The translations under genes were made by a program, and so were the position numbers. From an uncultured Verrucomicrobiae bacterium (GTDB lineage Bacteria; Chlamydiota; Chlamydiia; Chlamydiales; Rhabdochlamydiaceae), in assembly GCA_963731265.1 (NCBI GenBank), contig CAVSUE010000002.1:192001-256000 (forward strand): a stretch of DNA of 64,000 nucleotides, written 5' to 3'. Below are positions 48,028 to 59,654 of this stretch, one piece after another. Numbering within the stretch: position 1 is the first letter of the stretch; every line of letters starts with the position of its first letter. The notes beneath the pieces were generated by a model. The model did no database searches, was not told the DNA's origin, and was given only the letters and a program-made list of their open reading frames with translations.

Positions 48028-48981
48028 GTGGATACTGAGCCATTCCCGTTATCTAAAATTATTCTTCCAGGTGGGGCCGGCCTCGTGGGACATAATCTTG
48101 TTGCCCATTTGAAACGCAACGGGTGTAAAAATTTGGTCGTACTGGATAAACACCGTTCTAATCTGGAAACTTTAAAACAGCTGCACTCGGATATTAGCGT
48201 GGAATATGCAGACTTGGCAATAGATGGCTCCTGGAAGCGGCATTTTGAGAATGCGGGAACTGTTGTCATGCTCCAGGCACAGATCGGTGGGCCGACGCTA
48301 GAACCCTTCATTAGAAACAATATCGATTCTACCCGACGGATTTTGGATGCCATCGAGCATTATAAAGTGCCTTATACAGTGCACATTAGCTCATCTGTCG
48401 TTGCATCTGTTGCAGACGATCATTATACCCGTACCAAACGAGAACAAGAAAAAGTTGTGTTGGAAAGTGGCATCCCTTGCGTTGTACTAAGGCCCACGCT
48501 GATGTTTGGCTGGTTCGACCGCAAGCATTTGGGTTGGCTATCACGTTTTATGCATAGGACCCCCATTTTTCCAATTCCAGGGCACGGGCGCTATATGCGC
48601 CAGCCGTTATATACCGGGGATTTTTGTAAAATCATCATGCGCTGCATGCAAGATAGAATTCAAGGGAAGGTATTTAACATTTCCGGGCTCGATAGAATTG
48701 ATTATATAGATTTGATTCGATTGATTAAAAAGTGTATTGATTCCAATTGCTTGATTGTCAAAATTCCTTATCACTTTTTCTATGGTTTGCTAAAAACATG
48801 GGCTCTATTCGATTCCAATCCTCCCTTTACAGCAGATCAATTGAAGGCGTTAACTGCAGGCGATGAGTTTGAAAGAACCGACTGGCCAACTCTTTTTAAT
48901 ATCAAAGCGACGCCTCTACCAGAAGCCATCCATGAAACTTTTAATGATCCCATTTACAGCAAAGTAGCTTTAGAATTTTAG
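48028..48981 (+). CDS. NAD(P)-dependent epimerase/reductase (atypical SDR)
   Basis: GGAGLVG, ISSS, YTRTK, LRPTLMFG. Confidence 0.85.
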   Translation: MDTEPFPLSKIILPGGAGLVGHNLVAHLKRNGCKNLVVLDKHRSNLETLKQLHSDISVEYADLAIDGSWKRHFENAGTVVMLQAQIGGPTLEPFIRNNIDSTRRILDAIEHYKVPYTVHISSSVVASVADDHYTRTKREQEKVVLESGIPCVVLRPTLMFGWFDRKHLGWLSRFMHRTPIFPIPGHGRYMRQPLYTGDFCKIIMRCMQDRIQGKVFNISGLDRIDYIDLIRLIKKCIDSNCLIVKIPYHFFYGLLKTWALFDSNPPFTADQLKALTAGDEFERTDWPTLFNIKATPLPEAIHETFNDPIYSKVALEF

Positions 48982-48982
48982 A

Positions 48983-56924: not shown

Positions 56925-58230
56925 GAGTGACTCGTTTCCAAAAGTGAGAGCATAGAACGGGATCTCGTAAAGTTTCAACTTGTTTCCACATGGGGAAAAA
57001 TTCTTGAAAATCTTCAGCTGACATATGGGCATCTTTAGCTGGGTACAACCTTCCTTTGGCCTCGCGGACAATTGCGTCCAGACGAGGGAACAAATTGCGA
57101 TTTAACTTTTCAGACTGAGGAAAATCTAGTGCGAGGGTAATTCCAGGAAAGGGGAAGGAAAGCAGTCCTGGGGAAGGAACGTCTCCAAAGCGTTTCAAAA
57201 CGGCGAGAAACGATCCGCTTTTTGCGGATGCGATGACATCGAGCATCTCGCCTATGGCAGATTCAGCGAAGGAATGAGGGATCACGCATTGGTATTGCTG
57301 AAAACCGCGGGGTCCGTAAATACGGTTCCAATACAGAATGCGGTCCAGAGGAAAGAAAAAAGGTTCGTAGCTGATCGTCGTTTGTTGATGGGAGGATTTG
57401 TGCGCGTAATAGTAGATGGTATTGAACAGTCGCAGTGTCATGCTGTTGATTGTGGAGAGAGGGGGTGTGAACGGCACGCGGATTTTTTTAGCGTCGTCTG
57501 TGTTCAAAGATCCATTTTTTGCATGGTTCCCTGCAATATAAACCCCGCGGCCGGAGGATTTTCCTCTTGCGAGGCAATCGATCCATGACACTGTATATTC
57601 ATATTGATGATCGAGTTGCGAAGAGAGGGAAAAAAATTCATTTAGGGAGTTAAAACGGACGTGCAGGGAGTCGATGAGGGAGGATTGGATGGGGATGAGC
57701 TGTAATTCCAGCCAATCAATGATGCCTGTTAGTCCAAGGCCGCCGATGGTGGCGGCAAAGAGATCGTTGTTTTCTTGGCGAGAGCAGATCAGATGAGGTC
57801 GATCAGAGCGCATGAGCCCGAATTTGGGGACGTGGAGTCCAAATGTCCCTCGCCGATGATGATTTTTTCCGTGGATGTCATTGGCGAGCGCTCCGCCTAG
57901 TGTGACGAATTTTGTTCCGGGGACAACGGGAAGAAACCAGCCCCGGGGAATGGATATCGCGAGCAGTTCTTCCAAAGTCATTCCTGCTTCAGCGGTGATG
58001 ACCCCTTTTTTCCAGTCCGCAGCAATAAAACGGTTCAGGGAACGTGTAGGAAGGACTTGGTCGCTCGTGGCTAAACAGCTGTCGCCATAGCTGCGCCCAT
58101 TGCCAAAAGGGAGAGTTGTCCTCTGGTTTTTCTTAAAATCGGACAATAAATTTTGCATTTCGGAACGCCAAAAACAGGAGTGAGGCGTTTGGGGAAAAGA
58201 AGGATAAAGACCCCACGACAGGATTTTCAT
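56914..58230 (-). CDS. dprE1: DprE1-like FAD-linked polyprenylphosphoryl-ribose 2'-oxidase
   Basis: GNGRSYGD, PGTKFVTLGG, DIHGKNHH, GF.QYQ, LAVLKRFG, GRLYPAKD. Confidence 0.88.
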   Translation of the reverse strand: MKILSWGLYPSFPQTPHSCFWRSEMQNLLSDFKKNQRTTLPFGNGRSYGDSCLATSDQVLPTRSLNRFIAADWKKGVITAEAGMTLEELLAISIPRGWFLPVVPGTKFVTLGGALANDIHGKNHHRRGTFGLHVPKFGLMRSDRPHLICSRQENNDLFAATIGGLGLTGIIDWLELQLIPIQSSLIDSLHVRFNSLNEFFSLSSQLDHQYEYTVSWIDCLARGKSSGRGVYIAGNHAKNGSLNTDDAKKIRVPFTPPLSTINSMTLRLFNTIYYYAHKSSHQQTTISYEPFFFPLDRILYWNRIYGPRGFQQYQCVIPHSFAESAIGEMLDVIASAKSGSFLAVLKRFGDVPSPGLLSFPFPGITLALDFPQSEKLNRNLFPRLDAIVREAKGRLYPAKDAHMSAEDFQEFFPMWKQVETLRDPVLCSHFWKRVTHEK

Positions 58231-59654
58231 GCTGCTAACCAAAATATGGCGCCAAATAGGAATGCAACGAGGAGGCTAATGCGGTCTTTCATGGCAAAAA
58301 CGATGGGGTCGTCATGCATTTGACCGCGATGGGTGAGAAGCCAAGTGCGGCTGATCCAGTAAAGAACTAAAGGGCAGGCAAGCCATATCCATTTGGGGTG
58401 CTCATAAAGGCTTGCAATCGATTGATCTTGGATATAGAGAGCCAAAACCATCACAGAAAGGTATCCAGAGGCGGATCCTAAAGAAGCGACGATCTCAAGG
58501 TCGCCAGGGCAATAGCCACGGCCGCGGGTTTTTTCCAATTTGTCGTTATGTTGGGCATCGCGGAGCAGTTCTGCATACCGTTTGACGAAAGCCAGGCTTA
58601 AAAAAATGAACATGGAAAAGGCGAGCATCCAAAAAGTCAAAGTCAATCCGCATGCATATATCCCTGCGATGATGCGGAGCGTATAGAGCATGGCCAGTGC
58701 GATGACATCTGCAGCCATTCTTCGTTTGAAAACGAAAGAATAGAGGAGGGTCAAGGCAAAATAAAAGCCTAGCGCCGCTGAAAATTTCCAAGGCAATTGG
58801 GATGACGCTCCGAAAAAAGCCAAAGAGACAAGAAGAAAAAAAGCGAACAGCCCTGATTGAAGGGAGAGCTGTCCAGAAGCGAAAGGACGAAGGCGTTTGG
58901 TAGGATGATGACGGTCATCGGACAGATCGAGCAAATCGTTCAAAAGATAGACGCTAGATGCGCAAATGCCGAATAAAAAAAATGCTAAAAGGGAGTTCAA
59001 TAGCATGTTGGGGTTTGCAAACTGATGGCTGGCTAGAAGAGGAGCAAAGATGAGGGCATTTTTTAGCCATTGGTGAAGGCGGAGAGCTTTTGTCCAGGTT
59101 CTCCACCGATTTGAATTTGTCAGGAAAGTCCGTTCGATATTCCCATGAGCTTGAGCTTTTTTTTGCACCCCCCGTTCAGGATCAACAAGATACCCTTTCT
59201 TAGCTGCGGACAATACGGGGATATCATCTTGAGAGTTTCCAGCATAATCAAAACCGTGCGGGCCAAATTCGTTGACAAGCCTGTCTCGTTTAGCAGTGGC
59301 GGAGAGATTGATTTTACCCTCGGTTGCCAATACACGATCGAACAAGTTTAAGTGGGAAGCGATCTTTTCGGCATAAATTTTGTGGCTTGCTGTCGCAAGG
59401 ATGATCTCGCGCCCTTTTGATTTTTCTTCCTCGATGAATGCAAGAAGTTGTTCGTTATAGGGAAGATTGGCGACGTCGATGTCGATGGAGTTGGCGAGCT
59501 GTTCTTTAAGGTAAGCTTTGCCGGAAGCTAGCCATTTTAATGGCAGGAAAAAACGGCTAGGGTGAGATCGCAGAAAAGCAATGCCGGACTCTAATAACAA
59601 ATCTGTTTTTAGAAGAGTACCGTCCAAATCGATCACCAGGGGAGGAAGATTCAA
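58227..59654 (-). CDS. HAD phosphatase-UbiA fusion: polyprenyl-phosphate phosphoribosyltransferase
   Basis: DLDGTL HAD motif, then LRLHQWLKN, YLLNDLLD..DR.HP.K..RPFASG, KRYAE, DDP; probable TTG start at 59654. Confidence 0.88.
   Translation of the reverse strand: MNLPPLVIDLDGTLLKTDLLLESGIAFLRSHPSRFFLPLKWLASGKAYLKEQLANSIDIDVANLPYNEQLLAFIEEEKSKGREIILATASHKIYAEKIASHLNLFDRVLATEGKINLSATAKRDRLVNEFGPHGFDYAGNSQDDIPVLSAAKKGYLVDPERGVQKKAQAHGNIERTFLTNSNRWRTWTKALRLHQWLKNALIFAPLLASHQFANPNMLLNSLLAFFLFGICASSVYLLNDLLDLSDDRHHPTKRLRPFASGQLSLQSGLFAFFLLVSLAFFGASSQLPWKFSAALGFYFALTLLYSFVFKRRMAADVIALAMLYTLRIIAGIYACGLTLTFWMLAFSMFIFLSLAFVKRYAELLRDAQHNDKLEKTRGRGYCPGDLEIVASLGSASGYLSVMVLALYIQDQSIASLYEHPKWIWLACPLVLYWISRTWLLTHRGQMHDDPIVFAMKDRISLLVAFLFGAIFWLAA

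Follow-up and report, generated by a model that had tools for sequence, protein, structure and literature searches.

The described systems closest to the locus studied here build a pentofuranose on a lipid carrier. In one of them, the conversion of phosphoribosyl pyrophosphate (PRPP) into undecaprenyl-phosphate-ribofuranose (Und-P-Ribf) by a fusion of a haloacid dehalogenase (HAD) phosphatase and UbiA, followed by the action of a flippase and a glycosyltransferase (GT) of the GT-C type (GT136), is established (Kelly et al., 2024, PMC11127046). The C. youngae O1/O2 components ORF15 (PRP-PPPRS), ORF14 (flippase), ORF12 (GT136) and ORF13 (epimerase) of the same study parallel the genes described below. 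In its available text, DprE1/DprE2 homologues are assigned to arabinofuranose (Araf) glycans and the single short-chain dehydrogenase/reductase (SDR) ORF13 to xylofuranose (Xylf), Xanthomonas and Bacillus loci with several epimerases and GT-Cs are noted with unassigned functions and a complexity that 'warrants investigation', and inversion of C2 plus C3 is named as a route to lyxofuranose (Lyxf), a sugar absent from solved glycan structures. The second related system is the mycobacterial decaprenyl-phosphate-arabinofuranose pathway (Rv3806c, Rv3807c, DprE1/DprE2, Rv3789 and Emb/Aft). We have analysed a window of 64,000 nucleotides from a chlamydial genome (CAVSUE010000002.1, positions 192,001-256,000, GCA_963731265.1; coordinates follow the window numbering), which contains a cassette with counterparts of these components and, in addition, a pair consisting of a flavin adenine dinucleotide (FAD) protein of the PRK07233 family and an extended SDR. 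We propose, with a probability of roughly 0.4, that the cassette encodes one serial pathway, in which a single rare pentose is built on the lipid carrier, converted by a mutase and a C4 epimerase to L-xylopyranose (L-Xylp) and transferred extracytoplasmically. The cassette as such belongs to a kind of system that is already in print, was probably gained by horizontal transfer, and contains in addition an uncharacterised downstream enzyme pair.

The locus contains all three components of a pentofuranose system: a PRP-PPPRS synthase with its catalytic Asp/Asn residues, a predicted flippase of the GtrA type and a membrane protein, memA, whose model displays a GT-C fold. In the HAD-UbiA synthase, residues D37 (within DLDGT), N267/D268/D271/D275 and R387/E390 are the counterparts of those tested in C. 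youngae ORF15. Besides the fused synthase with these residues, the small flippase and the GT-C, the cassette shares with the C. youngae system the presence of auxiliary epimerases and its placement in a surface-glycan locus, whereas it differs in the GtrA-type of the flippase and in the number of tailoring enzymes, which is four instead of one. The resemblance to the mycobacterial pathway extends to the UbiA-type transferase, a DprE1 homologue (E 1e-58 against mycobacterial DprE1 structures), a DprE2-like SDR, a small flippase and the GT-C fold. In contrast to this pathway, the phosphatase takes the form of a HAD domain fused to the transferase, the Cys targeted by benzothiazinones is replaced by Ala and the FAD/SDR pair comes as an extra. 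In agreement with an earlier note on this DNA, Ala371 (GITLALDFP) occupies the alignment position of the Cys in GWNVCVDFP, the corresponding stretch of mycobacterial DprE1 (4aut), although the residue is no special trait of the protein, since Ala occupies this position in 94 of 94 aligned relatives and is the norm of the family. DprE1 and DprE2 both display full-length homology and active-site motifs, and both miss the cut-offs of their NCBIfam equivalogs (for DprE2, 169 bits on NF053786 at a cut-off of 250). With the catalytic motifs kept, the conversion of PRPP via lipid-P-Ribf to Araf is borne out at the level of homology.

The six-gene core of the cassette is common in Proteobacteria, and other members of the phylum carry UbiA and DprE1 modules of their own, so that its description as the best candidate for a novel system in the window was overstated. 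The same holds for the novelty of the pathway, as the kind of locus with several epimerases and GT-Cs is already contained in the available text of PMC11127046. Rather than a chlamydial invention, the window presents in clear form a widely found cassette, for the last two enzymes of which the searched literature gives no function. A full-text literature search, covering partial listings and few subscription papers, provided neither a function for the FAD/SDR pair nor a lipid-linked route to L-xylose, nor a description of the pathway in Chlamydiota, and the terms pentofuranose, Xylf, lyxo and GT136 do not occur in the available part of a 2026 Chem Rev review. A blastn search for GT136 and ORF13 gave no match in E. 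coli genomes and one unannotated UbiA match in phages.

By annotation and length only, the cassette resembles lipopolysaccharide (LPS) genes on the etfA side of the clusters of X. citri 306 and X. oryzae BXO8 (PMC2238763). These encode a prenyltransferase (481 aa), an oxidoreductase (433 aa), a short-chain dehydrogenase (242 aa), an epimerase (312-314 aa), a 'phytoene desaturase' (428-430 aa), GtrA and two large membrane proteins, for which no pathway is proposed in the available text of the paper. Xanthomonas LPS loci with a matching gene list are also reported elsewhere (bioRxiv 2022.03.02.482478), and mutants with insertions in three genes of the Xac LPS cluster (XAC3591, XAC3593 and XAC3595) are listed as biofilm-defective (PMC3130047). 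The product of the cassette is not named in the available text of PMC3071791, PMC3130047, PMC3364877, PMC12942842 and PMC13721041.

No function is assigned to the FAD/SDR pair in the available text of Kelly et al. (PMC11127046), and the distribution of genes now sets narrow limits to where it may act in the pathway. We have examined two collections, the best 80 of 434 GTDB stretches encoding relatives of the FAD protein (59-80% identity, mostly proteobacterial; termed related loci) and a sample of 401 Burkholderiaceae genomes obtained in one even draw from the family of genome G301, with 4-5 genomes unscored per search. In the Burkholderiaceae, where the nesting of genome lists was compared by eye, UbiA is found in 103 of 396, DprE1 in 65 of 396 and the FAD protein in 21 of 397 genomes, with each set being contained in the preceding one. 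The FAD gene is present in 21 of the 65 genomes with DprE1 versus none of the 38 with UbiA and no DprE1 (Fisher p 2e-5, or 4e-5 without the centre genome, in a sample where kin are not independent). The SDR accompanies 19 of the 21 FAD genes and is found in none of 67 searched genomes that lack the FAD gene, which comprise all 44 of the remaining genomes with DprE1 and 23 of the 38 without. Plasmid records contain UbiA in 83, DprE1 in 58 and the SDR and a close FAD protein in seven cases each, with latter two sets being identical and all positive for DprE1. In the related loci, the SDR is adjacent to the FAD gene in 80/80, GtrA is found in 77, DprE1 in 66 and UbiA in 62 cases, and if confined to the 57 loci with at least 7 kb of upstream DNA, DprE1 is found in 55 and UbiA in 54. 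Exceptions among the 80 are L064, where DprE1 is a fragment and DprE2 is missing, L074 and L075, which lack UbiA and DprE1, and L101, which lacks UbiA, in the fetched DNA. Because of the strict nesting and the absence of the FAD gene from all 38 genomes with UbiA and no DprE1, the pair probably acts after the formation of arabinose, with the FAD protein preceding the SDR, which supplies a testable order of steps.

The same distribution bears on the proposal of the earlier note that Und-P-Ribf would feed two parallel branches, one leading to Araf via DprE1/DprE2 and the other to Xylf via the FAD/SDR pair, with one GT-C for each sugar. Such branching appears improbable, as the pair is never found without DprE1 where UbiA is present (0/62 UbiA-bearing loci, 0/38 genomes, 0/7 plasmids). 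Nor is a separate GT-C for each sugar supported as a conserved design, because the sister genome G131 contains the second membrane protein, memB, in the absence of memA, and both occur together in only 2 of the 80 related loci. A C3 epimerase that makes Xylf from Ribf has been published (PMC11127046), memA and memB are not paralogous, with their profiles finding common ground in the C-terminal domain only, and surplus Araf could still be transferred even in a serial pathway, which all would agree with two branches. Xylf as product of the second pair finds no support, since the window SDR is distant from the lone SDRs that accompany UbiA in 4 of 20 loci without DprE1, which score with E 1e-6 to 1e-12 on its family profile. 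In its distribution, the window SDR also departs from a single-SDR xylofuranose epimerase of the ORF13 type, being absent from all 67 searched genomes without the FAD gene, 23 of which contain UbiA and no DprE1. The four loci with lone SDRs (L132, L148, L149 and L151) combine UbiA with one adjacent SDR and small and large membrane proteins and are, by this layout, candidates for ORF13-type xylofuranose systems.

In the serial pathway that we favour, HAD-UbiA would convert PRPP to Und-P-beta-D-ribofuranose and DprE1/DprE2 would turn latter into Und-P-beta-D-arabinofuranose, both as predicted from homology to tested enzymes, with the oxidation at C2 being ascribed to DprE1. The FAD protein would then act as flavin-dependent furanose-to-pyranose mutase and generate Und-P-beta-D-arabinopyranose, from which the SDR, working as NAD-dependent C4 epimerase, would form Und-P-alpha-L-xylopyranose. 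Among proteins of known structure, the best full-length match of the SDR is an epimerase-domain protein, 6zl6, with a weak E of 8e-8. Following flipping of the lipid-linked sugar by GtrA, its transfer as beta-L-xylopyranose would fall to memA and memB, which would serve either two positions or two different acceptors, the acceptor likely being an O-antigen or another surface glycan encoded by the neighbouring genes. With respect to stereochemistry, we expect the 1,2-cis donor to be retained through both steps and to be inverted by the GT-C, resulting in beta-L-Xylp. This chemistry is mirrored in the UDP-Xyl/UDP-Arap/UDP-Araf route of plants. The FAD protein might in this way be the first mutase of the furanose/pyranose type to work on a sugar attached to a lipid, and would together with the SDR convert PRPP-derived D-arabinofuranose to L-xylopyranose on the carrier, an assignment that we put forward tentatively.

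Four observations lead us to favour a mutase and a 4-epimerase. First, the FAD gene can, in one case, lack the SDR, while the SDR is never found without the FAD gene. Of the two Burkholderiaceae genomes with a FAD gene and no SDR match, G584 carries the gene at the end of a contig, whereas in G337 (L123, G337:C82) it follows directly after memB in a cassette with no room for an SDR, an arrangement that fits a FAD step that alone yields a usable sugar, with D-arabinopyranose as the product predicted by the mutase model. Second, one SDR is sufficient for the inversion of C3 in C. youngae O2 (PMC11127046). Third, Lyxf is absent from solved glycans while the cassette is common. Fourth, the predicted beta-L-Xylp is a known side chain of R. 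solanacearum, where it is found as terminal, non-stoichiometric residue of the O-antigen (PMC10450222), and the species complex contains a memB homologue (P0334). One Xanthomonas O-chain is described as partially L-xylosylated rhamnan in a title contained in a reference list. If correct, the mutase/epimerase route would account for the beta-L-xylose that occurs as side chain in O-antigens of Ralstonia and Xanthomonas and would give a role to a cassette that hundreds of species carry.

Several points weigh against this proposal. Although the FAD protein, in a model with a predicted local distance difference test (pLDDT) score of 97, adopts an amine-oxidase fold that resembles UDP-galactopyranose mutase in its overall architecture and in a His of the flavin loop (His59, 99% conserved), there are nearer structures, and the mutase works on a UDP sugar instead of a lipid-linked one. 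In profile searches, phytoene desaturase is found with E 1.5e-25 compared to E 4e-12 for the mutase, and also by fold, redox enzymes outrank mutases, with Z 35.5 for phytoene desaturase and Z 32.9 for protoporphyrinogen oxidase (PPO) compared to Z 30.3 for UDP-galactopyranose mutase (4dsh, rmsd 3.4, 402 aligned residues, 14% identity). With phytoene desaturase and PPO ranking higher, mutases are not the closest family of the FAD protein by either measure. The poorer ranking lowers the case for membership in the UDP-galactopyranose mutase family but not for a mutase-like working, and the modelled fold agrees with an oxidase no less than with a mutase. The FAD gene without SDR is a single clear case in G337, a genome of unknown completeness. 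None of 396 scored Burkholderiaceae genomes contains a close Ralstonia match to memB, and L-Xylp and the cassette could not be linked in any single strain. The O-antigen of X. citri pv. citri is reported as plain rhamnose polymer (PMC8042644), and strain 306 carries the gene set (PMC2238763), while the side chains of Xylella are reported as beta-D-Xylp (PMC5786101). Finally, the activities given here to the FAD protein and to the SDR are predicted roles.

The preference of the fold for oxidases is expected for the main rival to L-Xylp, a serial redox epimerisation in which C3 of Und-P-Araf would first be oxidised by the flavoprotein and then be reduced by the SDR from the opposite side, yielding Und-P-D-lyxofuranose. 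The nearest structural relatives of the flavoprotein are membrane-associated oxidases of lipid substrates, an oxidase/SDR pair would parallel the action of DprE1/DprE2 at C2, the nesting inside DprE1 genomes would be equally expected, and the combined inversion of C2 and C3 is the Lyxf route named by Kelly et al. (PMC11127046). We nevertheless consider this outcome doubtful, as Lyxf is found in no solved glycan despite the wide occurrence of the cassette (434 GTDB matches of the FAD gene and the Xanthomonas LPS loci), and as it would neither require a second enzyme, given the single SDR of C. youngae O2, nor account for the retention of the FAD gene without SDR in G337. Both leading outcomes, lipid-linked L-xylopyranose made by a mutase and a 4-epimerase or lyxofuranose, would represent new sugar chemistry, and either would make the structure of a surface glycan predictable from genomes and provide more enzymes for glycoengineering.

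Other features of the FAD family hint at different kinds of serial tailoring, such as oxidation of C5 with inversion of C4 leading to L-xylofuranose, a deoxygenation or a reaction linked to O-methylation. The fatty acid isomerase 2b9w belongs to the same fold family, the FAD protein shows a weak score on the model of the dehydroxylase HpnE, and the cassette of Xoo BXO8 includes a methyltransferase (PMC2238763). Among six long FAD homologues that were checked, four are fused to a methyltransferase and none to an SDR. These four distant family members (P0398, P0400, P0438 and P0509), which carry S-adenosylmethionine (SAM) methyltransferase domains, suggest O-methylated products in some systems. 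We regard such tailoring as unlikely, since among known glycans we found none whose structure would require its products and a methyltransferase is no fixed member of the cassette, with a homologue of the 236-aa protein of the window being present in 1 of 80 related loci.

It is very improbable that the pair acts on a nucleotide sugar and merely shares the locus. The SDR belongs to the nucleotide-sugar epimerase superfamily, and distant PRK07233 members (24-29% identity) are found in loci without DprE1, in L019 beside GT2 and DegT genes and in L112 without cassette genes. In contrast, the close family has, in most loci, GtrA on one side and DprE2 or a GT-C candidate on the other, and it is restricted to genomes with DprE1, which bears out the placement of the pair on the lipid pathway in the earlier note. 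The distant gene in L019 (L019:2276-9674) is part of a run with GT2, a DegT aminotransferase and a stand-alone UbiA, with no DprE1, which possibly encodes a pathway for a lipid-linked amino sugar.

The suggestion that memA resembles GT-C enzymes is supported by its predicted structure, an AlphaFold2 model based on 117 sequences with a pLDDT of 95. In VIA comparisons, the model superimposes on Pmt4 (Z 16.2, rmsd 4.8, 325 aligned residues), ArnT (Z 15.8, rmsd 5.1, 335 aligned residues) and AglB (Z 15.7), and on the mycobacterial enzymes EmbB (Z 14.4) and AftB (Z 14.1). There are 43 matches with Z of at least 9, nearly all of them GT-C enzymes, before the score falls to 7.3, while a check with Foldseek gave modest E-values and two unrelated top matches. 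The conserved residues D41, H68, R335 and Y336 (numbering of P0121) form an Asp/His/Arg-Tyr pattern with a loose likeness to residues of the GT136 enzyme ORF12. Searches of PDB profiles with the alignments of memA and memB found no GT-C, and none of 23 scanned memB homologues matched a GT-C family of Pfam, which is no argument against a GT-C fold, because the memA model displays this fold. For memB, which contains about nine hydrophobic segments and a conserved D58 past the first helix, the Atlas provides PMT_2 as a lead covering 14% of one cluster, and its assignment as putative GT-C is probable from sequence features. In Burkholderiaceae, 9 of 9 memB homologues adjoin cassette genes. Since memA and memB are richer in AT (GC content of 37-38% compared to 43-49% for core genes) and since several other membrane families are found at related loci, the transferases of the cassette look exchangeable.

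Within the phylum, the cassette is rare. Among 300 scored genomes, the full-length HAD-UbiA fusion is found in two, G000 and G131, latter being one of nine other members of the genus, while 13 more contain a stand-alone UbiA domain. Of these, 11 loci (L018-L028) were examined and nine carry DprE1, whereas the SDR, GtrA, memA and memB are found in none of the 11. Their DprE1 belongs to a separate clade, some contain a separate HAD gene, and three (L018, L021 and L023) a distant FAD protein with 24-26% identity. By their gene content, these loci form a second, independent module of the Araf type. In a quick tree of 81 sequences rooted at the midpoint, where the donor is not pinned down, the DprE1 of the window and its sister branch from within the Pseudomonadota, separately from the nine further sequences of the phylum, with the protein of G337 as nearest outside relative. 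An ancestral chlamydial origin was rejected in an approximately unbiased (AU) test against a single clade for all DprE1 sequences of the phylum (p 1.8e-6, quick tree with 30 of the 81 sequences, test chosen after inspection of the tree). The presence of the fusion in 2 of 300 genomes and the placement of DprE1 within the Pseudomonadota make a horizontal uptake of the cassette from a proteobacterium probable. The host genome (2.34 Mb, 96% completeness) scores above the cut-offs of models for the TopA-SWIB and GreA fusions, which we take to be chlamydial hallmarks, while Chlam_OMP6 has no match in this genome nor in control genomes, a result that carries no information. It contains PRPP-synthase-like and UppS-like genes, identified with short motifs as probes, and no second copies of cassette genes.

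All eight open reading frames (ORFs) named in the earlier note are present and intact in the order and orientation stated there (Table 1). The two operons described as convergent do have opposite orientation, but they do not meet directly, as a gene encoding a GT17-methyltransferase fusion separates memA from GtrA, and the minus-strand run, whose named gene order stands, starts not with HAD-UbiA but one gene earlier with a 236-aa protein. Starts and stops of cassette ORFs abut or overlap. The frame of HAD-UbiA is open up to 59738, and the gene has a TTG start.

Table 1. Features of the cassette and of its surroundings in the window.
Feature	Position	Strand	Remarks
O-antigen ligase	39265-40683		upstream glycan region
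Extended SDR, predicted epimerase	48028-48981	plus	PF01370; GGAGLVG, SSS and YTRTK motifs
PRK07233-family flavoprotein	48983-50287	plus	PRK07233/NF005560 548 bits (cut-off 252)
GtrA-family protein, predicted flippase	50238-50681	plus	PF04138 E 1e-15; ATG at 50280
GT17-family glycosyltransferase + Methyltransf_24 fusion	50733-52211	minus	PF04724 + PF13578
memA, predicted GT-C-fold membrane glycosyltransferase	52405-54087	minus	AlphaFold2 model
memB, polytopic membrane protein whose C-terminal region is soluble	54084-55982	minus	candidate GT-C
DprE2-like SDR reductase	56175-56924	minus	PRK07102 342 bits (cut-off 267); YGTAK motif
DprE1-like FAD oxidase	56914-58230	minus	NF053785 317 bits (below cut-off of 500)
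HAD phosphatase-UbiA fusion (PRP-PPPRS type)	58227-59654	minus	PF12710 + PF01040; PRK08238 659 bits (cut-off 351)
236-aa protein, possible O-methyltransferase	59672-60382	minus	head of minus-strand run
ABC-2 permease	63246		likely part of the acceptor pathway

The cassette is embedded in what, from its gene content, is a surface-glycan region. The upstream genes between 39265 and 47970 encode, besides the O-antigen ligase, a GDP-mannose dehydratase (gmd), a GT4 enzyme, ManC, a Wzy-like polymerase (GC 36%) and an orphan protein of 320 aa, and together with the ABC-2 permease they likely constitute the acceptor pathway. The GT17-Methyltransf_24 fusion, found in 0 of the 80 related loci, probably lies outside the conserved cassette, and four further Methyltransf_24-like stretches are located elsewhere in the host genome. 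The 236-aa protein shows no family match in library scans. Its 65%-identical homologue, which has a weak match to RMNT_CmcI (E 0.017), flanks the cassette of G131. In this rearranged cassette (L016:6339-7430, 18764-19819), the homologue precedes the SDR, a GT2/GT92-like gene stands where the window has memA and the GT17 fusion, and a topA-like ORF directly adjoins HAD-UbiA.

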